Origin: a phage
Sequence record: PZ674596.1
Direction: 5' to 3' (one strand)
Length of the DNA stretch: 64,000 bases
Made by a program: the position numbers and the translations under genes. A model generated the notes under the pieces. The model had not been told where the DNA came from. It saw nothing but the letters and a program-made list of their open reading frames with translations, and did not search any database. Shown in pieces: positions 34,471 to 58,075 of the stretch. How positions within the stretch are numbered: the first letter of the stretch is position 1; every line of letters begins with the position of its first letter.

Positions 34471-36156
34471 ATGAATACAGCCCTTTCCATCATCGACGAT
34501 GCCAGCTCAAACACGGCTATCGACTATCGTCAGGAAATGAATGTCATCCACGAAATCGTGGCCGAGTGCGAGAAAGAGATCGCCTTCATGTATCAGGTAC
34601 ACGACTTCGTTTATGGCGACGAACGCCACAACATGATTAATCGCCTGCTGAGACTAAACCATCGACCAGATGAAGATCGCTCGCGTTTAAATCGAGGTTG
34701 GTTGGATAAAGTCGATCTGGAATGGGTGAAACAGAATATTTGGGCCGAGTACTGGAGGAAGGTCACGGACATGACTAACGTTTTGCTGATCATGCCAGCT
34801 TCCCGTCGAGATGAGTGGCGCGAGCAGTTTATAGAGGGCAAACAGGAAGTCATCAAAACTGACAGAACCGGCTACCAGATGAAGGTTAAAGAGTTCGTTG
34901 GTGTACCGGAGTTCAAAGCAGAAACGGTCATACCCACGATGCTTAATTTGCTGAATGACAGGCACAAATATCTCTCTGAGCGCGTGTATGGCTTGTTTAA
35001 GGCGCTGAGTCCTGCGCACAAGACAAATAAGACAAACGGTTTCAGCGAGCGGCTGATAATCGCTGACTGCATTTCTGATTTCTGGCGGGACAGCGTTAGC
35101 GTGAACTATCGCAAAGAGGACTACATCGACGATCTGCGTGTCTTGCTTCATTTCTTCGCGCACAAAGAATTTATTACCATCAACCGCACTGCTGAGGTGC
35201 TATCAGCTGCGTATCGGGCAAACGACTGCCAGACCGGTGACTGGATGAACGTCGATGGAAATCTGATGCGCGTGAAGATGTTCAAGAACGGCAACGTTCA
35301 CTTTGAAATACATCCTGACGTGGCCTGGAAGTTGAATGAGGTGCTGGCTTACAGTATGCCTGCTGCAATCCCCGCGCCATGTCGCACCGCGCCAAAAACA
35401 CGGGCACCAAAGCAGTTCGGGTTAATCCAGAAGACGATCTCCGTGCCGGTTCGCACTGCGCTTCGTGACGGGCGATTGAGCAAAGACAAAGGCGTATGGT
35501 ACTTCTCTGATTCAGCTCTCCAGAAGTCGCAGGTGGAAGAGCTTGAGCGCACACTGAGCTTCATTGGCGGCGTGCAGGAGAAAAAACACTGGCAGTTCCC
35601 GTATGACATCGTCCATACGCTAAATACGATTGTGGCTACCGGATTAATACCGGATACAAAATCACACCAGTTCTACCCTACCCCACGCTTGATTGCTGAG
35701 TACGTTGCCAGAGCCACTGAATTGAAGCCTGGTGAGAAGCTGCTGGAGCCTCAAGCCGGACGTGGGGATCTTCTGGCCTATATTAACGCCGATCTGGAAG
35801 ATGTTACCTGCATAGAAATCGCACCTCTCTTCGCTGATATCCTGCGTGGAAAAGGGTATACGAACACGATTTGCTGCGACTTCATAAAGTGGTCTGAGGA
35901 CAACGCAGGTTATCAGTTCGACAAAATCGTTATGAACCCGCCGTACTCGCTTGGTCGTCATAGAGAGCACACTCTGGCTGCGCTTGGGCATCTGAAAGTC
36001 GGCGGGCGTCTTGTAGCAGTATTGCCGGGCACTGCGCCAATACTGGACTGGATGACGATGGATAATTACGTTTATGCCAGAGGGAAGTCGTTTACCAACG
36101 AGTTTGAAGACACAGGGATCACAGTCAGCGTATACGTTTTCAAACGCGTTAAATGA
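34471..36156 (+). CDS. large protein with C-terminal N6-adenine DNA methyltransferase domain
   Basis: 561 aa; SAM-binding-like LEPQAGRGDL then catalytic VMNPPYS near C-terminus; ~400 aa N-terminal region of unknown function. Confidence 0.6.
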   Translation: MNTALSIIDDASSNTAIDYRQEMNVIHEIVAECEKEIAFMYQVHDFVYGDERHNMINRLLRLNHRPDEDRSRLNRGWLDKVDLEWVKQNIWAEYWRKVTDMTNVLLIMPASRRDEWREQFIEGKQEVIKTDRTGYQMKVKEFVGVPEFKAETVIPTMLNLLNDRHKYLSERVYGLFKALSPAHKTNKTNGFSERLIIADCISDFWRDSVSVNYRKEDYIDDLRVLLHFFAHKEFITINRTAEVLSAAYRANDCQTGDWMNVDGNLMRVKMFKNGNVHFEIHPDVAWKLNEVLAYSMPAAIPAPCRTAPKTRAPKQFGLIQKTISVPVRTALRDGRLSKDKGVWYFSDSALQKSQVEELERTLSFIGGVQEKKHWQFPYDIVHTLNTIVATGLIPDTKSHQFYPTPRLIAEYVARATELKPGEKLLEPQAGRGDLLAYINADLEDVTCIEIAPLFADILRGKGYTNTICCDFIKWSEDNAGYQFDKIVMNPPYSLGRHREHTLAALGHLKVGGRLVAVLPGTAPILDWMTMDNYVYARGKSFTNEFEDTGITVSVYVFKRVK

Positions 36157-36217: not shown

Positions 36218-36922
36218 ATGAACAACCTCCAGTTAGAGCATTTTAACGTCACAGGCCATTCTGATTTTCCTTTCAAGTTTACATTGAAAGGTTATGCAGA
36301 GGATGCGGTAGGCCAGATCATTATTGATAAAGGCATCGTTAAGTTTGAGGGGAATTTTGATGAATCCGCGAAAACATTCATAGACTTCGTTGCCAAACGT
36401 TGGAGCGAGCAATGGAAAGACCTGGAAAAGCGCGCTAATGAGTTTGATCGGTTCATGGATGCAATGGATACAGCAAAAGAGGCTCTTGCTGCCGGGACTC
36501 CGTTAGATCTGGAGTCACTTTTCAACGGCGAAGTGGCCTCTGCGATGTTCGCCACCATGTTCGCGGGTGAGTTCGTCCGCAGCGGTGCCAAAAACTACCT
36601 TGAGCTGGATTACAACGTCCCTGCAATTGGCGACTTCGTCGTTACCATCCAACGCAAAGAAGGTAAGACGCCAGGTGAACGCGTCGCAGAGCTTGAGGCC
36701 GTTGTGGATCAGCGTAACGGAGAGTGTGACCGTTTGATCAACGAGCTTCATGCACTTCGGGAAGAAAGAATATGTGCGGGTAGCAATACACGTAATGCTG
36801 CGGATATCTACTTCCAGTTAGTCGAGGAATGCCAGATTCCACCAGGTGGCTCTCTTGTCGATTACGTCAGACATTTAATGGCGGAAGTTAACTCCAGCCA
36901 TAAAGATGGTGAGGTGCGCTGA
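36218..36922 (+). CDS. hypothetical protein (shares C-terminal module with 39406..40098)
   Basis: 234 aa; C-terminal NTRNAADIYFQLVEECQIPPGGSLVDYV also present in a second protein. Confidence 0.5.
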   Translation: MNNLQLEHFNVTGHSDFPFKFTLKGYAEDAVGQIIIDKGIVKFEGNFDESAKTFIDFVAKRWSEQWKDLEKRANEFDRFMDAMDTAKEALAAGTPLDLESLFNGEVASAMFATMFAGEFVRSGAKNYLELDYNVPAIGDFVVTIQRKEGKTPGERVAELEAVVDQRNGECDRLINELHALREERICAGSNTRNAADIYFQLVEECQIPPGGSLVDYVRHLMAEVNSSHKDGEVR

Positions 36923-37421: not shown

Positions 37422-38063
37422 ATGTCTAGTATTTCCGAAGCTCATATGTTCGCCGCTGGCGCTCATGGTGGCGTTGGTCAGAAAAGAAAATATACCGGCG
37501 AAGACTACATCAACCACCCGGTTGCGGTCCGAGAGATTGTTGCATTGCATGACGGAACCGTGGAGATGCAAATCGCGGCGCTTCTGCATGATGTGGTCGA
37601 AGACACCCATGTAACCATAGAGATGGTTCGTGATCACTTCGGTGAGCGCGTAGCTGAAATGGTTCAGGCTCTGACCAACATTGCAAGGCCAGAAGACGGC
37701 AATCGAATACAGCGTTTCATCATCAATGTCCGGGAGCTGGAGCAAAATCTCGACATGCAGACGCGCATGATCAAGCTGGCTGACCTGCTCGACAATACCT
37801 CTTCTATCGTGAGTCGCGATCCCGAGTTTTCAGCTGTCTACCTCGCAGAGAAAGAACTGATGCTGGACGTACTCTTTCACGGCAAAGAGATTGGTGCCAA
37901 CGCTGATGTTGTCGAGTACATGGAGAGGATAGGTATAGAACACCCGTTGCTATTAAGCGCAATGGCGAAAGTCACTGAAGGTATTGCGCTTCTGAAACCG
38001 GTACACATCAAACGTTATGAAAAACACAAATCGCTGATCTGGAGCGCGTGGGAGGCTGCATGA
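37422..38063 (+). CDS. SpoT/RelA-type HD-domain (p)ppGpp hydrolase-like protein (small alarmone hydrolase)
   Basis: 213 aa; aligns to RelA/SpoT hydrolase domain: EDYINHPVAV..IAALLHDVVEDT..FGERVAEMV..IKLADLLDN. Confidence 0.7.
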   Translation: MSSISEAHMFAAGAHGGVGQKRKYTGEDYINHPVAVREIVALHDGTVEMQIAALLHDVVEDTHVTIEMVRDHFGERVAEMVQALTNIARPEDGNRIQRFIINVRELEQNLDMQTRMIKLADLLDNTSSIVSRDPEFSAVYLAEKELMLDVLFHGKEIGANADVVEYMERIGIEHPLLLSAMAKVTEGIALLKPVHIKRYEKHKSLIWSAWEAA

Positions 38064-38602
38064 AGGTCGAAAAAATAGATGTTCTTTCCTTTGTGCTGAC
38101 GGATCTGGAACGCCTCGATCCGGTTCGAGTAATGATTGAAAACTACGAACCTGGTAAGGGAAGAATCACCATCATCTGCTACGGAAAAGCGTGGACTGCG
38201 GCTTGGTTTGCTATGGGCGGTGATGATGTGCAGACGTTCATTAAGCGGGTCAGCAACGAGTATCTAATCGGCTATTTCGACTCTCAACTGCGAAGCACGG
38301 TCGACGATGACAACGATGCAAATCTGCTTTTCGTGAAGTCAGAAATCATAAAGTTACGAAGAGAGAGAGAAATCGACGCCGTACTGGCTCGTGAAATGTG
38401 GGACGAGGCGGAAAACGCCGATGACGTAAAAGAAAGCTGCTGTTGTTTCGGCGTCGGTAACAAACTGCTGAATCTCTTTGGTGATGATCCGTGGTATGCC
38501 GACTGGCCAACGGTACCAAACCCGAAATACCAGTATCTGGAACGCATTGTGAACGCGGTACGTGAAGGGCTGAAAGAGTTAGACAAGTTAGAGGCATCGT
38601 AA
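38060..38602 (+). CDS. hypothetical protein
   Basis: 180 aa from ATG 38060 overlapping upstream stop. Confidence 0.45.
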   Translation: MKVEKIDVLSFVLTDLERLDPVRVMIENYEPGKGRITIICYGKAWTAAWFAMGGDDVQTFIKRVSNEYLIGYFDSQLRSTVDDDNDANLLFVKSEIIKLRREREIDAVLAREMWDEAENADDVKESCCCFGVGNKLLNLFGDDPWYADWPTVPNPKYQYLERIVNAVREGLKELDKLEAS

Positions 38603-39108
38603 TGAGAGAGAAAATCAAGAACCCGGTCGTCGTATTGTATAAACGGGAAACCAGCGATTCTTATGCGGTATCCATCACTGATGGAAGCCAGAACATGCAC
38701 GATGGTCTGCTAATGGCCGCCGTATCTCCTGATGATTCGGACTACCCTTTCGCCACTTTCGCTATGGTTGGTTACTACATGGCTGCCGAAATTGAGAAGT
38801 TGCGGGCGCAGAGAGACGCATTAGCGGCGGAGAATGTGGCATTGCGATCTAAGGCTGCGGAACTGGCACATGAAGCGTCAAAAATTTACTCGGCATATAA
38901 CGCCACTATCACAGAGCCTGACGGGGATTTTATGGACATGCAGACATTGCATGAAATGCAGTGCATAGAAACTCCAGCCACCGACGCTTTTCTGGCTGAA
39001 GTACGTGCGCAGGGCGTGGAGATGTTTGCGGAGTGTGCATACACACTTGAACATCATGATCACGCATTAGCTTTTGCCGCCGAGCTACGTGAAGGAGGCA
39101 ACCAGTGA
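38602..39108 (+). CDS. hypothetical protein
   Basis: 168 aa; start overlaps upstream stop. Confidence 0.45.
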   Translation: MREKIKNPVVVLYKRETSDSYAVSITDGSQNMHDGLLMAAVSPDDSDYPFATFAMVGYYMAAEIEKLRAQRDALAAENVALRSKAAELAHEASKIYSAYNATITEPDGDFMDMQTLHEMQCIETPATDAFLAEVRAQGVEMFAECAYTLEHHDHALAFAAELREGGNQ

Positions 39109-39405: not shown

Positions 39406-40098
39406 ATGACCAACATTAACTATCAGGCACTGCGTGAAAAGGCAGAAAAAGCAACGTGGGGAGACTGGGACTCATATAAACCACACCGTGGCGCACGTGG
39501 TTATAAGGTCCGACTAAGTGGTCAGGCCATTGCGCAACACGTTCTGAAAAACAACGCTGAATTTATTGCTGCCTTTAATCCAAAGGTTGCTTTGGCATTA
39601 CTGGATGAACTGGAAAGAAACCAGCAATACATCAAACGCCGTGACCAGGAGAACGAGGAAATTGCGCTAACGGTAGGGAGGCTTCGCGTTGAGCTGGAAG
39701 GCAAAGACAGCAAAATAGCCAATCTTACCGCCGAACGCGATGCTCTTCGTGAAGGTGAGATGGGCGACGCTAGGCATAGCAACACACGGGCCGCAGCTGA
39801 TATCTACTTCCAACTGGTCGAGGAGTGCGAAATTCCTGCTGGCGGTTCTCTGGTCGAGTACGTTGACGATATGCGCGAGAAGTTGGAAGCCGCAGAGAAG
39901 CGCATTGCAGAGTTAGAAAGTGGTTCTCAGGCACAAAAGTTAGTTGAAGCAATCATTGTTGCGATAGAAAACGAACAGGAAAGGCTTTTTGATGAAGATT
40001 ACCTAATGGATTCGAAAGAATGCATTGACGTAATTCGTGAAGAAGTAAAGCGATGGAATGATTCCCGTGCCGCTGGCATTCGCATCAAAGGAGAGTGA
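39406..40098 (+). CDS. hypothetical protein (paralogous C-terminal module)
   Basis: 230 aa; NTRAAADIYFQLVEECEIPAGGSLVEYV matches C-terminus of 36218..36922. Confidence 0.5.
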   Translation: MTNINYQALREKAEKATWGDWDSYKPHRGARGYKVRLSGQAIAQHVLKNNAEFIAAFNPKVALALLDELERNQQYIKRRDQENEEIALTVGRLRVELEGKDSKIANLTAERDALREGEMGDARHSNTRAAADIYFQLVEECEIPAGGSLVEYVDDMREKLEAAEKRIAELESGSQAQKLVEAIIVAIENEQERLFDEDYLMDSKECIDVIREEVKRWNDSRAAGIRIKGE

Positions 40099-40099
40099 T

Positions 40100-40363
40100 A
40101 TGGCAACTTTGACAAAAAAAGAACAAGCATGGTTGAGCGAATTACAGGACGTTCTTGATCGCTGCCCATCACCGAAAAAAATTGGTTTTTACACCATTGG
40201 CGATAAAAGCATTTACCTGTATGACCTGCGCCGCATGGATGAAATCATGGAGGCTCTTGATAATCGTTCGTCGATGGATTGGTGTGTTGCTGTCCATGAT
40301 ATGAATGCCGGATTTGATGAAAGGATTTTGTTCCCCTCGTCAGTTGAAAGCACTGCGGGTTAA
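40100..40363 (+). CDS. hypothetical protein
   Basis: 87 aa from ATG 40100 after AAAGGAGAG; table ORF extends into upstream gene. Confidence 0.4.
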   Translation: MATLTKKEQAWLSELQDVLDRCPSPKKIGFYTIGDKSIYLYDLRRMDEIMEALDNRSSMDWCVAVHDMNAGFDERILFPSSVESTAG

Positions 40364-40373
40364 GGAGTAACAC

Positions 40374-41213
40374 ATGACCACTATAACCGATAAGAAACAG
40401 TATCCAGGCGAGCAATATCTTAATGAGCTAATCACCAACATAGAGTTTGCTGCAAGGGCACCAGTTGAAGTCGTGAGAGCGATGGCAGCAGAGCTACAGA
40501 AGCGGCGCGAAGCTGATAGTGCAGAACCTGCAAGTAATCATGAAGAGTTGCCGCTTGATTATCTCCAAGGTCAAAAAGATGGTCTTGAATGGGCTGCGCA
40601 GCTTGCAGAAGCAAATCACCCACAAACTGGCGACTGGCTTTACGATGACCCGCTGGAGCTGGCTAAAGCTATCAGAAAAGGTCCTGACATGCCCGAATTC
40701 GATGGACCAACTCCGGTAACTCCGGATGGTTGGATAAGCTGTAGTGAGCGAATGCCTGTAATTGGCGAGCTAAATTGGAGAACTAGTTTTCCTTTACTGG
40801 TTATGTGTGAGATCGGCGTTATACCTGCTTATTACGGCTTTGTGAGCGTTAATGGTGATAGGCATTATGGCTTTATGGAGAGTCTTAAATACGGAGACGA
40901 TAACGGCAACCATCCTCAAACTAATGAATATGGTCTGATTAGCAATGTCACACACTGGATGCCACTACCAGAACGCCGCAGGAGTCGAACAGTGAATAAA
41001 GCAGAGTTATTTCAGAAAATATCGGCTCTCGCGACTGAATGTCACGCTATAGCATCTGAGCTTGATGTTGGCGGTGAACGAACCGAGATGTTCGAAATAT
41101 ACAGTGTGCTGCGCAATCTCTGTCGGCGTGGCTACGCTACTCAGGTAGGGCGAATGACTAACCCACTACTTTCATTCTGTGATGAGGATGACTCGGATGA
41201 GGATGACGAATGA
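40374..41213 (+). CDS. hypothetical protein with acidic C-terminal tail
   Basis: 279 aa; ends DEDDSDEDDE; central W..C..RMP / THWMPLP segment. Confidence 0.45.
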   Translation: MTTITDKKQYPGEQYLNELITNIEFAARAPVEVVRAMAAELQKRREADSAEPASNHEELPLDYLQGQKDGLEWAAQLAEANHPQTGDWLYDDPLELAKAIRKGPDMPEFDGPTPVTPDGWISCSERMPVIGELNWRTSFPLLVMCEIGVIPAYYGFVSVNGDRHYGFMESLKYGDDNGNHPQTNEYGLISNVTHWMPLPERRRSRTVNKAELFQKISALATECHAIASELDVGGERTEMFEIYSVLRNLCRRGYATQVGRMTNPLLSFCDEDDSDEDDE

Positions 41214-53378: not shown

Positions 53379-54029
53379 TTACGCTTTGAAAGCATCAGCT
53401 AAATAATTGTAGAAATCATTTTTAATGAAGCGATATTGCTGAGTACCAGCTTTTGCGCTCCCAGCTCCTTTGACTTTCTCAACAAGTCCGAGACGTTCGC
53501 AAAGATTGATCAACTGGTTGGCTTGAGTATAGCCAGCGTCCAATTTAATTTCGCACGCTTTTTTAGCTTCATTCATTAAATCGAAAACAGCGCCATTAGT
53601 GAACGTGTCGATCTCGTCGTTAATCATATCGATTAAAGCGAATACACGAGATCCTGACATATCAGCGACGGAATAAACGCATTTACCAGCTTTAATGGAT
53701 TTAACCAGATAAACCAGTTTTTCCAGTGAATAACTATTAGTCATTGCATCACGGAAAAATACTTCTGGCGCTTGTTTGCTTGCTTTAATCGCATAGTAGA
53801 AAACAGAGCATAATTTTTCGTCTTCAACAGCGTTTACAACGTTGTTGATGAAGTAAGCAAGTTTAGTGGTAGCAGCTTGCATATTTGCTTTATCTGCTTT
53901 GGTGTGCGTACCATTTTTATAATGTTCGTTATATGTTTGAGTTGCCAGATCTGCTTTTTCTTTTAATTCATTTGTTACAACACGCGCAGCTTCAACGATG
54001 GATTTTTTAGATAAGATAATATTGGTCAT
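53379..54029 (-). CDS. hypothetical protein
   Basis: 216 aa from ATG 54029 with RBS AGGAA; low-GC coding region. Confidence 0.5.
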   Translation of the reverse strand: MTNIILSKKSIVEAARVVTNELKEKADLATQTYNEHYKNGTHTKADKANMQAATTKLAYFINNVVNAVEDEKLCSVFYYAIKASKQAPEVFFRDAMTNSYSLEKLVYLVKSIKAGKCVYSVADMSGSRVFALIDMINDEIDTFTNGAVFDLMNEAKKACEIKLDAGYTQANQLINLCERLGLVEKVKGAGSAKAGTQQYRFIKNDFYNYLADAFKA

Positions 54030-54322
54030 GGTTTTATTCCTTACAAAAATTAAAATGAATTTATTTTTTACTGTCGTTAGCCAGTTCGCTTTCGACGAGT
54101 TCAATTATCGATACGCAAAAAAAGATTGCAAGTGTTTTTTTTAGTTTTTTGCAGGGACGAAAGTCCTAGAAATAAAAGCGAGATCGTCGAAGGTGTTCCC
54201 TAAATAAATAATTAATTCCGGCTTATAACCTTATATGTTTATACGGAGTAGAATTGGAGGTGTATTTAATAAATGGCATTTAAAAAAATAACCGGACTTA
54301 GCCGGTTATTACCCTTATACAT

Positions 54323-54619
54323 TTATCGGACTGATTCTACAGCCTTACGATTGGTGTCAAATAACGCATCAACGAACTGCACAGAAGAGTTGTTCGATTC
54401 ACATGGTTCATAATTTTCCACTTGTTCACATAGTTGAGCGGTCTTACCAATGTTTATCCCTAATTTTACAGCTGCTGAAAGTTTAAACATGCAAACTGGT
54501 ACATTCTGAGACGTTGAGCATACGTCATTCATCAGCGACTGAATAATTGCGATATCATCCTTTGCATTGGCCGAAATTGAGTAAACTAAAAATAAAGATG
54601 TCAATAGTATCGATTTCAT
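54323..54619 (-). CDS. small secreted Cys-rich protein
   Basis: 98 aa; signal peptide MKSILLTSLFLVYSISANA; six Cys in mature part. Confidence 0.5.
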   Translation of the reverse strand: MKSILLTSLFLVYSISANAKDDIAIIQSLMNDVCSTSQNVPVCMFKLSAAVKLGINIGKTAQLCEQVENYEPCESNNSSVQFVDALFDTNRKAVESVR

Positions 54620-54622
54620 AAC

Positions 54623-55144
54623 TCAAAACGGTAAAATTCGTTCAACCCAATCGAAGAATACAAGTGTTTTTCTGCCGTCTTCTAACTTAAGAGTGACCTG
54701 GCAAGCATCAACGCCTCTTGATATCCCTTCTATTTCACGACCGTCTGCCATGTAGACCCTTATAGATTTGCCGTTTTGGTAAGCCTGACGACATATCTTA
54801 AAAAAGTCACGACGTGATGGCTGATTGTCAACATAGTCTGGATGTATTGTTAGCCTACCTTTGAACTCGCGAGCAATGCCATCGATTACACCTGATTCAA
54901 TTGTGCTAATGCGCTCAAGTGGGAGTCTTATACGATTTTCTTTATCATATGGAAGCGGGCATAAATCTAGCTTATTGCGGGAAGGCATTGTCCCCTGAAC
55001 GTACATGCAAAACACCTGACCGTCTTCAAGCGTGACTCTTACAGGAATGTTGTTTTTCCGCCAGAACATAAGTATGTTTTCAGCATGTTCGTAGTCTCGT
55101 GGCCAGACTTCTGCTGGAATGCCGTAGGTGATGTCTTTAACCAT
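54623..55144 (-). CDS. hypothetical protein with internal tandem repeat of ~80-aa domain (weak Sm/Hfq-like signature)
   Basis: 173 aa; halves share R..N.IPVRVTLEDGQV / GKSIRVYMADGREIEG pattern; ends 3 nt before the secreted-protein gene. Confidence 0.45.
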   Translation of the reverse strand: MVKDITYGIPAEVWPRDYEHAENILMFWRKNNIPVRVTLEDGQVFCMYVQGTMPSRNKLDLCPLPYDKENRIRLPLERISTIESGVIDGIAREFKGRLTIHPDYVDNQPSRRDFFKICRQAYQNGKSIRVYMADGREIEGISRGVDACQVTLKLEDGRKTLVFFDWVERILPF

Positions 55145-55246
55145 AGTCTACCTTTTTAAGTCTTTTTTGGTCATTATATACATCTCTATGATGCGTAGAC
55201 AGACTAACCGTACATTCCAACAAAAATTGATTATGGAACAAGTTTC

Positions 55247-56047
55247 ATGAAGAATGGGGTGAATAAAAAATACTCATTAGCATTGTTAATAGCGGCTTTA
55301 CTATTAACAGGTTGTGATTCTGATGAAGAGCGAGCCATAAATCTGGTCGAGAAGGATATTCGCTCTACACTGCTAGATCCTGATGCTGGTCGGTTCACGA
55401 ATATGCGAGCTATTCAGTTAGGTGAAAATAGCTATTCATATATGGTATGTGGAGAGGTGAATGGCAAAAACGTCTTGAACGCCTATACAGGTGCGACCGC
55501 ATTCAATGCACACATCTTTGATGTTCGTGAACGTAACCCGATTGTATTCGTTGCAATGGATAAAAATACCAACTCGGCAAGAGAACGATTACGTTTTGAA
55601 CGCCAAAATCTAGCATGTAAAGAAAATGGTGTGAAACTTTATCTGGAAAACGAATCTAATATCAGGAAGGAAAAAGAGAAAATAGATGATTTAAAAAAAA
55701 CTCCATTAGGTCAGGCTGTGTTTGATGCTGCAAGTGATTCGACATATGTGAGTAGAGAGTTGGGCGAATCGAGAGGTGTTAGTGAAGTGTATGCAAGAGA
55801 AAATGATAAATATGCTCTTGTTAGCGTCACCAATTATGACACTCCTGACTTTTACAAATTTAGGAAAAAAGATAACGGTGAACTAGAACCTGTTAGAGGA
55901 CTGTCTTACACCGGCTATCCATTCGCGGTTACACTGTGCCATTCTGAACAAACAGATTATGACAAATGCATAACAGAAGAAGAAATCAAGTTGCTTCGAG
56001 ACGAAAAGAATAAGCTGGATGATTTTGTCGTGCCACCAGAAGAATAA
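55247..56047 (+). CDS. lipoprotein of unknown function
   Basis: 266 aa; signal peptide with lipobox LLTGC; only plus-strand gene in the low-GC island. Confidence 0.55.
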   Translation: MKNGVNKKYSLALLIAALLLTGCDSDEERAINLVEKDIRSTLLDPDAGRFTNMRAIQLGENSYSYMVCGEVNGKNVLNAYTGATAFNAHIFDVRERNPIVFVAMDKNTNSARERLRFERQNLACKENGVKLYLENESNIRKEKEKIDDLKKTPLGQAVFDAASDSTYVSRELGESRGVSEVYARENDKYALVSVTNYDTPDFYKFRKKDNGELEPVRGLSYTGYPFAVTLCHSEQTDYDKCITEEEIKLLRDEKNKLDDFVVPPEE

Positions 56048-56106
56048 CATATACAAAATATTTAATTGCTGTTAACATTTAATCGTTCAGACATAGGGAA
56101 AGTCCT

Positions 56107-56144
56107 ATGCCCTCGACAAATCTTTCTGGTATTGTCGAGGGCAT
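56107..56144. terminator. bidirectional hairpin between convergent genes
   Basis: ATGCCCTCGACAA...TTGTCGAGGGCAT inverted repeat. Confidence 0.6.
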
Positions 56145-56169
56145 GTTTCACATTTATAGGTAGATAGCG

Positions 56170-57303
56170 TTAATTGGCGTTTTCGTTCTTCTCTTTTTTG
56201 CTAATTTCATCACATGCAAGGTTCATTATGTCTATGTTTTCTTGTTTTTGAAGGTTGCCGACAATTTTTTGGCGCAATTCATAAAATCGCTCGCGTGGTA
56301 TAGCTTCCTTGTTGCCGCTGATGTGAAGTATTGCGTGACAGCTAGGGCAGACGGCAATCAGATCTGTTTTTGGGTTCACGCTTCGTGCACCTTCGCCTTG
56401 TGAAAGTGGGATGATGTGGTGAGCGTGTAGCAGCGTTTTCGTTTCTTTACCGTCAATTTCCTTGCCGTATATTTCCGACATCGTTCTGCAACATAGTTGA
56501 CACCTGTAGTCTGCGTTTGCCAGAACGTCATTCCTTAACCCGGATACGCGGCTACGATGTTGCGACTGGATTAATCTTGTTTCGCCCTCTATATATTCCT
56601 CAACTTCTTCTTTCTGGAGGTCGTAGCTGATTTCTTCTTGAGTTACGTTGTCTTCTGCTTTGGCTGAGACTGCATGAATCTCTTTCTTATTCAACGAGAA
56701 AGGTGATTTGAGAGCATCAGCACTGTTTTGCCCTCTTGAATGTTGTGATTTTAGAGCAAGATTGTAAATCTCTTTTAATTTGACATTTTTTTTGTTTGTT
56801 CTAAAGAACTTTCTGCTCTCTACTTGTGAGATAATCCCTGATTCTATATATTGAATTAACACACGAAGAAAATGTTCTATAGATTTTTTACTTTTGAATG
56901 AAAAGGAATAGCCGACTTTCTTTCTCAACTCGTTTTCGCTAAAGAACTCTTTCAGATTTTCGTCGTCAGTCAGGTTAATGGTTGCACCTGCCCAGGTTGA
57001 AGCTTCTACAATTTCAGGAATAACCTCTTGGTCGCCAAGCTGATTGTTTATTTCATCCAGCATTTTAAAGACTGTCAATATTGGATACGGATTCGTCACC
57101 AGACCGTTAGAGGATTTCGTTCTAGGCCCATTCTTTTTTATAATGATGGGGTGCTGTTGAGAAGTTTTCTTTAATTGTAAATAATAAAGGTTTATATTAT
57201 TATTCGTTGATATACCTGCCGGTTTTATCAAGGATAATTTTTCATCACATGCAATATCATCTATTATATTTCTTAGGTCACACGTTTTTATAAATTGACG
57301 CAT
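56170..57303 (-). CDS. HNH-nuclease-domain protein with unknown N-terminal domain
   Basis: 377 aa; C-terminal CQLCC...HAHHIIPLS...CPSCH HNH signature; low GC; RBS GGAGGA lies in a CCTCCGAA/TTCGGAGG hairpin. Confidence 0.6.
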   Translation of the reverse strand: MRQFIKTCDLRNIIDDIACDEKLSLIKPAGISTNNNINLYYLQLKKTSQQHPIIIKKNGPRTKSSNGLVTNPYPILTVFKMLDEINNQLGDQEVIPEIVEASTWAGATINLTDDENLKEFFSENELRKKVGYSFSFKSKKSIEHFLRVLIQYIESGIISQVESRKFFRTNKKNVKLKEIYNLALKSQHSRGQNSADALKSPFSLNKKEIHAVSAKAEDNVTQEEISYDLQKEEVEEYIEGETRLIQSQHRSRVSGLRNDVLANADYRCQLCCRTMSEIYGKEIDGKETKTLLHAHHIIPLSQGEGARSVNPKTDLIAVCPSCHAILHISGNKEAIPRERFYELRQKIVGNLQKQENIDIMNLACDEISKKEKNENAN

Positions 57304-57443
57304 ATATCCTCCGAATTTCTTCGGAGGCGGAGCCTACAAATATCGTTCAGCCAATCAAGAAATTTTTTCAGCCGGAGGTGTACATTTCAAAAAATGTGAC
57401 GAATGTCACATGCAGGTGCTCTCATACACCTGCATGTAGACTA

Positions 57444-58010
57444 TTAATCATTCAATAATCTATATTTTCTTTTGATTAAATCTTCACCTTTTTTGGTGAA
57501 CACAAAACCAAATTGCGATTTTTTGTTTAGACGAAGGACTCTGTTATCCAACGCATCGGTTGATGGAATCAATGTTTGATCATCTATCCAATTAAGTAGC
57601 GTAAGAAAGTTCAGCAGCCTCAACGTTGTTGTGCGAAGCTCTTTCGATATATTTTCAATGCTGGCAATTCGTCTTTCTTTTTTCTCAGGTGGTACAGATA
57701 ATTGTTCTTGAGGTTTCGTGGATAGATAATCAATTTCGTTTGCTGCATCGAATGATATGTGTGGCGTAATTTTGCTAAAAAAGCCTTTCGCTGACTCACT
57801 TGATAATAAACCAGACCTATTCATATCGTTTGTTATTCTGTACAGGAGTGGACTGTGTTTCATTTCAGGATAACGTTGATAAAAGTTAAGCAATTCAAAA
57901 GCAGCATTAGCGCCAACAAGAAAATCAGAAGGATCGCTGACTTTCCAGAAAGAATGATTTTTCTTAGCGCCAGTGGTGTCAACAAATGATAATTCTTTTA
58001 ACCAACTCAT
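57444..58010 (-). CDS. hypothetical protein
   Basis: 188 aa from ATG 58010 with RBS AAGGAG; inverted repeat GATGTGCTC-N13-GAGCACATC overlaps the RBS. Confidence 0.45.
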   Translation of the reverse strand: MSWLKELSFVDTTGAKKNHSFWKVSDPSDFLVGANAAFELLNFYQRYPEMKHSPLLYRITNDMNRSGLLSSESAKGFFSKITPHISFDAANEIDYLSTKPQEQLSVPPEKKERRIASIENISKELRTTTLRLLNFLTLLNWIDDQTLIPSTDALDNRVLRLNKKSQFGFVFTKKGEDLIKRKYRLLND

Positions 58011-58075
58011 GATGTGCTCCTTTCTAACAAGTGAGCACATCATAGAATTAGTAGATAGGGGGTAAATATGAAATG

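Follow-up and report, generated by a model that had tools for sequence, protein, structure and literature searches.

The analysed window is a 64,000-nucleotide stretch of phage DNA, which nucleotide comparison identified as an SSU5-like phage-plasmid of E. coli. Two genes on its plus strand are considered here: gene A (36218–36922), encoding a protein of 234 aa, and gene B (39406–40098), encoding a protein of 230 aa. The region from 34.4 to 41.3 kb aligns over 86% of its length with the E. coli plasmid p4_0.2 (NZ_CP023851, 110 kb, non-mobilizable) at 99.2% identity, and it matches hundreds of plasmids of about 105–115 kb from Escherichia, Klebsiella, Salmonella, Enterobacter, and Citrobacter. 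The portion with gene A (34.4–38.6 kb) is 87.7% identical to Salmonella phage SSU5, and the portion around gene B (about 38.1–41.0 kb) is 91–96% identical to the lambdoid phages EC.W1-9 and HK140. Judged by these matches, the DNA around gene B differs in origin from the SSU5 backbone. Elsewhere in the window, the interval 54000–58000 has a G+C content of 0.38, compared with about 0.46–0.49 in the rest, and its ORFs lie mostly on the minus strand (54623–55144, 56170–57303, and 57444–58043); this interval may be a separately acquired block.

A BLASTP comparison of the A and B proteins revealed one significant alignment, pairing residues 156–229 of A with residues 90–165 of B (34/76 identical, E 4e-16), while all the remaining HSPs had E ≥ 0.028. 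This pairwise alignment, which the first-pass annotation of the sequence had proposed as a check, places the resemblance far beyond chance. The shared core comprises residues 189–217 of A (nt 36782–36868; SNTRNAADIYFQLVEECQIPPGGSLVDYV) and residues 125–153 of B (nt 39778–39864), both on the plus strand and aligned as protein and as DNA, with 25 of 29 amino acids and 66 of 87 nucleotides identical. Its consensus in the two proteins is SNTR(N/A)AADIYFQLVEEC(Q/E)IP(P/A)GGSLV(D/E)YV, with an E-value of about 1e-14 for the 29 residues. In blastn, positions 36781–36867 and 39777–39863 were 77% identical over 87 bp (E 5e-14), bearing out the motif, its coordinates, and the nucleotide identity of about 75% noted earlier. 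The accompanying statement that both proteins end with this motif is wrong for B; only in A does the core lie near the C-terminus, with 17 residues after it. In B, the core is internal (125–153 of 230), and the 77 residues after it form a coiled-coil segment and a C-terminal domain ending in KGE. Searches of the 64-kb window with tblastn in six frames and with blastn gave these two copies only, the next best match having E > 0.2.

Both proteins are helix-rich, and the likeness that flanks the core (ALRE, ELE) is of a kind typical of coiled coils, as would be expected if two low-complexity coiled-coil proteins merely happened to resemble each other. The core, however, is free of heptad repeats and contains a Pro-Gly-Gly turn, and its sequence recurs nearly unchanged in 113 clusters. 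With the E-values of the pair and of the core added, the probability of a chance resemblance is negligible.

The nucleotide differences within the core are informative about its history. Between A and B there are 16 synonymous and 5 non-synonymous differences, giving a saturated pS of 0.79 and a pN of 0.075. The DNA identity of 76–77% is thus a mere footprint of amino-acid conservation, and the saturation of synonymous sites indicates that the copies are old and have been kept by purifying selection on the protein. Conservation of a nucleotide-level element, such as a recombination hotspot, a promoter, or a structured RNA, rather than a protein module, could be envisaged, given that short conserved junctions seem to serve as crossovers (for example, the KRIAELE junction of gene B at about 39895–39915). 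This explanation is highly improbable, as 16 of the 21 nucleotide differences in the core are synonymous and it is the peptide that is conserved; moreover, no Rfam match was obtained in the 33–43 kb interval, and the breakpoints fall mostly outside the module.

Gene A encodes an SSU5-like backbone protein with an N-terminal domain, a short coiled coil, and the module near its C-terminus. The phrog_8364 profile matches the protein over its full length (residues 1–234 on profile positions 1–234, E 8e-148). No Pfam match was found for A at E ≤ 0.1, nor a PF13935 match for its C-terminal fragment at E ≤ 10; A is therefore not a member of the Ea22 family and has the cassette alone in common with it. 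Its C-terminus reads DGEVR and not K/RGE. The gene is flanked by a DUF4942 methyltransferase gene and an HD-domain gene within the SSU5 backbone. In SSU5, the adjoining DUF4942 protein (34471–36156, 561 aa) carries the annotation DNA modification methylase, and its C-terminal methyltransferase region matches PADLOC mad2 (E 1.5e-15) and type II methyltransferase models. Homologues of A occur on contigs and plasmids of about 105–115 kb from Salmonella, Citrobacter, Klebsiella, and Enterobacter; the module is kept across these genera, and the QIPPGGS variant seen in A is conserved across SSU5-like plasmids of several genera. In a few members of the family (P0089, P0099, and P0105), the C-terminus is swapped just past the coiled coil.

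Gene B is an Ead/Ea22-like mosaic, in which a variable N-terminal domain is followed by a conserved ALLDELERNQQYIKRRDQENEEIALTVG stalk, the module cassette, a KRIAELE junction, a helical C-terminal domain, and the tail AAGIRIKGE. The protein matches PF13935 (Ead/Ea22-like) with 96.3 bits (E 3e-27; gathering cut-off 27 bits). The fragment 1–117 alone scores 97.7 bits, with residues 3–104 aligned to profile positions 2–113, so the score derives from the N-terminal part of B and the module lies outside the scored region. B terminates in IRIKGE and thereby has the K/R-G-E tripeptide described for the Ea22 family. More than 100 clusters are at least 94% identical to B, many of them on Mb-scale contigs of E. 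coli, Salmonella, or Shigella, which are probably chromosomal prophages.

At the DNA level, gene B shows sharp mosaic boundaries around the cassette, in line with the earlier suggestion of module shuffling. The stalk and module segment (39592–39911) is 97.5% identical in blastn to hkaG of phage HK620; the identity is limited to this segment, and the N- and C-terminal domains of B are unrelated to those of hkaG. The central cassette (residues ~94–164, 39684–39897), which contains the module, is absent from the Ea22-like gene of p4_0.2, where the stalk and the C-terminal domain are the same but the central cassette between them is unrelated. The segment encoding the C-terminal domain (39898–40102) is 97.6–98% identical to the p4_0.2 gene over that segment only. 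The hkaG-like and p4_0.2-like blocks overlap at the KRIAELE junction, which by this overlap is probably a crossover point. The window and p4_0.2 (NZ_CP023851 8733–9925) also differ just downstream of the Ea22-like gene, where p4_0.2 encodes a ClpX C4 zinc-finger protein together with other small ORFs and the window (40103–40723) contains a phrog_1714 gene as well as the beginning of a DUF551 gene. From this comparison, the region at gene B and just downstream looks like a local hot spot of replacement.

The two copies share a strand of one replicon and are separated by 3 kb, which could bring to mind a recent duplication or a gene conversion between A and B inside the element. We rejected this on the saturation of synonymous sites, about 20 of which are available in the core and 16 of which differ. 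The proposal is also hard to reconcile with the retention of the QIPPGGS variant throughout the SSU5-like plasmids, with the near-identity of the B segment to HK620 hkaG, and with the presence of two copies in only 2 of the 550 module-bearing plasmids in PLSDB, and it is even less probable than a nucleotide-level element. The nearest relative, p4_0.2, has A's copy only. The comparative evidence instead shows vertical inheritance of the A copy in the SSU5-like phage-plasmid lineage and a B copy of HK620 type that sits in lambdoid/P22-like DNA; on the same evidence, the two are ancient relatives, neither of which was derived from the other in this element.

The conserved unit is longer than the stretch of about 90 bp first noted; the core stands, and with its flanks it forms a cassette of ~55 aa. 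The cassette consists of an ERDALRE motif, a Gly-rich linker of 5–8 residues, the segment NTRAAADIYFQLVEEC, an IPxGGS turn, and LV(E/Q/G)(Y/H)(V/I)D.(M/L)(R/K)(E/D), and thereby takes in the upstream motif and linker as well as the start of the next helix downstream. Both A and B fit this definition. In A, the extended module (residues ~176–222, 36743–36883, plus strand) comprises ELHALREER, the linker ICAGS, the helix NTRNAADIYFQLVEEC, the turn QIPPGGS, and LVDYVRHLM, its upstream motif being the variant LHALREER. In B (residues 108–164, 39727–39897, plus strand), the corresponding elements are TAERDALREG, the linker EMGDARH, the helix SNTRAAADIYFQLVEEC, the turn EIPAGGS, and the helix LVEYVDDMREKLEAAE.

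A pattern search recovered the core in 113 sequences, A and B included, and disclosed a very uniform unit. The positions AAD.Y.QL..E and SL are present in all 113 sequences, and N-T-R, I, F, P, and GG each in at least 100 of them; D132, Y134, Q136, and E140 of B are among the invariant residues. In the first helix, the polar residues (T, R, D, Q, E, and E) vary no more than the hydrophobic ones. The core Cys (Cys-141 in B) is replaced by Leu in 19 of the 113 representatives. A fragment scan against Pfam found no model covering the module and only weak coiled-coil noise, a profile search of the PDB with the module gave no match at E ≤ 10, and PADLOC returned no defence-system match for A or B. 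The cassette is an unnamed, unannotated, and very strongly conserved unit of ~55 aa.

To follow the module elsewhere, as the first-pass annotation had advised, we used phmmer to search the 56-aa region of B exhaustively against 1.84 billion representatives, one per 50%-identity cluster. This gave 117 clusters at E ≤ 1e-3, 80 of them at E ≤ 1e-10; a word search with a 56-aa module query had returned only 16 short fragments and was superseded. In at least 17 clusters the 56-aa module is 100% identical, while the whole proteins are <50% identical. When the module and 22 residues on each side were removed and the remaining flanks grouped, about 113 clusters resolved into 37 unrelated N-terminal and 41 unrelated C-terminal families in 78 distinct combinations, which substantiates module shuffling. 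PF13935 was found in only 39 of 99 module-bearing proteins and DUF551 in 6, and a KGE C-terminus in 23 of the 113 module-bearing representatives. In several module-bearing database proteins (P0198, P0228, P0150, and P0151), unrelated sequence starts within or just past the module; assembly errors may account for these, or the Ea22-like genes may be frameshifted or pseudogenised, and they were not counted as separate architectures. Recombination at short conserved junctions moves the whole cassette between dozens of unrelated N- and C-terminal domains, with ALLDE(R/L)E, KRIAELE, and AAGI..KGE as the candidate junction motifs.

In tblastn, the module appeared in 31 annotated phage records. These comprise P22-like and lambdoid phages (HK620 hkaG, HK633, HK140, HK106, and HF4s), SSU5-like phage-plasmids, Yersinia phages YeP1-3, the 95-kb phages ECML-606-1 and phiT5282EW, and Klebsiella lastaviruses, in which the module lies inside a DUF551/Eaa1 protein. 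A Yersinia enterocolitica protein bears a module of the EELEVPAGGSLVGVID type. No lambda or Stx phage was among the 31 records, and the experimentally studied Ea22 proteins (lambda, V1–V3) are hence without the cassette. Among plasmids, 550 entries of PLSDB encode the module. In 95 PLSDB plasmids, an Ea22-like gene carries a module at least 99% identical to that of B; the examples listed (H62–H68) are E. coli plasmids of 89–102 kb, smaller than the SSU5-like ones. This level of identity indicates that the cassette is also in circulation among large non-mobilizable plasmids of a second group.

Domains encoded by four genes neighbouring A and B (starting at 38048, 38602, 40374, and 41210) are fused elsewhere to the module or to the N-terminus of A, which places the whole early-gene block in one domain-exchange network. 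The product of the first (38048–38602, plus strand) is fused elsewhere to the A-family N-terminal domain. In other SSU5-like plasmids, the N-terminal ~100 residues of A (36218–36520) and this entire product form one protein of 274–287 aa, as in P0120 from Enterobacter hormaechei, and phrog_3451 spans both halves; this arrangement points to gene fission, fusion, or deletion between genes that are 1.1 kb apart here. The second neighbour (38602–39108, plus strand) encodes a 168-aa coiled-coil protein whose C-terminal domain, ETPATDAFLAEVRAQGV, occurs in other proteins joined to the module (P0160) or to an A-family N-terminus (P0089). A RDALAAENVALRS motif in the 38602–39108 protein resembles the ERDALRE lead-in of the module, and in P0089 the breakpoint falls inside the module, at GSITR/FAAENVAL. 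Segments of the DUF551 gene (40374–41213, plus strand) occur elsewhere directly downstream of the module (P0185, P0154, P0153, P0161, P0148, and P0167).

To evaluate how the cassette could be built, we considered AlphaFold2 models of both proteins. The monomer model of B, from an alignment of 99 sequences, had a mean pLDDT of 83. It contains a helix at residues 59–117 (pLDDT 95–98), a break at 118–124 that coincides with the Gly-rich linker, a helix at 125–140 corresponding to NTRAAADIYFQLVEEC, a loop at 141–148 (EIPAGGS), a helix at 149–171, and a helical C-terminal domain with helices between 175 and 222. The model of A, from a 22-sequence family alignment, had a pLDDT of 45, and its secondary structure alone was used. 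It places helices at 152–182, 188–205, and 213–229, with a break after the first and a loop after the second, and, despite its low confidence, repeats the helix-loop-helix pattern of B. Both module helices are amphipathic (muH 1.1–1.3), and the core carries a net charge of −6 in B and −2 in A. In B, the hydrophobic faces are formed by T127/A130/Y134/L137/V138/C141 and by L149/V153/M156/L160/A163/I167. From the models, the cassette is predicted to form a helix-turn-helix hairpin that is acidic and amphipathic.

A Foldseek search with the B model retrieved nothing significant, the best E-values being 5.3 against the PDB and 0.39 against BFVD. Sequence searches of the PDB with A and B likewise found nothing; the best match, of the C-terminal domain of B to YbaB (E 0.21), was treated as noise. 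The replacement of Cys-141 by Leu in 19 representatives fits a buried position, and a catalytic or metal-binding role for this residue was rejected on the same substitution. A DNA-binding helix-turn-helix is unlikely, given a turn of 8 residues and the net charge of −6 in B.

The explanation that we favour, with moderate confidence, is that the shared core is part of an interchangeable Ead/Ea22-like cassette acting as a hairpin packing node in an oligomeric assembly. The hairpin, made up of the helix NTRAAADIYFQLVEEC, the IPxGGS turn, and a helix beginning LVEYVDD, would come after the Gly-rich linker, a flexible break where the coiled-coil stalk ends. By analogy with Ea22, the cassette is probably a self-contained packing node in a dimeric or tetrameric assembly of the Ea22 type, where it could present or orient the next domain. 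For A, and for minimal Ea22-like proteins like P0183, the terminal head would be the cassette itself. The whole proteins presumably play an accessory early role, modulating the lysis-lysogeny or host-stress decision in the manner of lambda and Stx Ea22. Full-length Ea22 of lambda and of P27 forms tetramers with dimeric C-terminal domains (PMC10834534), which is why we prefer a packing node; as lambda and V1–V3 are without the cassette, their pro-lysogenic phenotype and oligomeric state serve as analogy only.

The invariant polar residues of the first helix would, as a pattern of conservation, suit a specific surface for binding a partner no less well than a node of purely structural function, and they are compatible with the common interaction domain that the first-pass annotation had offered as an alternative. 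The module could accordingly be viewed as mainly a docking site, where the acidic helix-turn-helix surface of many different Ea22-like and SSU5 proteins would engage a single shared partner, be it a host factor or a conserved phage protein, while the variable N- and C-terminal domains supply different activities. Near-invariance of both polar and hydrophobic positions over 113 clusters, next to coiled-coil and terminal domains that vary freely, is what a docking surface would show, as is the acidity of the core, most pronounced in B. The C-terminal domains of Ea22 are also acidic and have been proposed to engage a host protein (PMC10834534). Variants of the module track host genus, as with the EELEVPAGGSLVGVID type of Yersinia enterocolitica, but such tracking is equally expected from simple vertical divergence. 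Two-hybrid surveys of lambda Ea22, which is without the cassette, yielded no partner, and searches of Pfam, PDB, BFVD, and PADLOC linked the module to no known interaction domain. A role mainly in docking is, in our estimation, possible though rather doubtful.

An unlikely proposal is that the cassette serves different temperate elements in common, for hetero-association or docking; otherwise unrelated accessory proteins of co-resident elements would then co-assemble or compete for the same host target. If this were true, SSU5-like phage-plasmids and lambdoid/P22-like prophages would couple their lysis-lysogeny or stress decisions, and the cassette would be a "common currency" domain across elements.

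Whatever its role, the cassette offers a clean, quantified case of sub-genic domain shuffling in phage "dark matter". It passes between lambdoid/P22-like phages, Yersinia phages, Klebsiella lastaviruses, and large non-mobilizable plasmids with Ea22-like genes, both SSU5-like and other. Ea22-like proteins influence prophage induction in pathogenic E. coli, and the 55-aa unit could become a domain model and provide a handle for finding their partner or the way in which they assemble.

Among the closest known systems is Ea22 (lambda; Stx V1–V3; PF13935/IPR025153), in which, according to published work, blocks form a mosaic, the C-terminal domains (DUF551 among them) are portable, and one genome can carry several variants (PMC7093339; PMC10834534). 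B has the same N-terminal signature, conserved stalk, and terminal K/RGE, and in its AlphaFold2 model it also has the long central coiled coil (helix 59–117) and the separate portable C-terminal domain, whereas A has only the short helix 152–182, predicted with low confidence. The NTRAAADIYFQLVEEC-IPxGGS cassette is present in A and B and was not found by tblastn in the lambda and Stx records. Ea22 genes lie in the exo-xis region (early left operon) of lambdoid phages, whereas genes A and B are in a phage-plasmid, and the pro-lysogenic, tetrameric function has been described for cassette-less relatives only.

The cassette itself is found in HK620 HkaG and the P22 EaD-type proteins (also in HK633, HK140, HK106, and HF4s), where a 35-aa stretch of the module is 97–100% identical to that of B. 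HkaG shares with B the stalk-plus-module DNA but differs in its N-terminal variable and C-terminal domains, and its function is annotated as "unknown". In the phrog_8364 family (SSU5, pHCM2-like plasmids, Cyrano, and PhiR41_1), most aligned members carry the module C-terminally, as A does; these proteins have no Pfam domain, their N-terminal two thirds are unrelated to Ea22, and they end in GEVR or ERCAA, not KGE. DUF551 (PF04448)/Eaa-type proteins, such as Eaa1 of Klebsiella Lastavirus and YfdS of E. coli, include some with the module fused directly upstream; DUF551 is a different domain, absent from A and B, although a DUF551 gene adjoins B in the window. The shared module is therefore no new kind of system, but a real, well-supported case of the published mosaic Ea22 phenomenon, to which it adds one sharply defined cassette.
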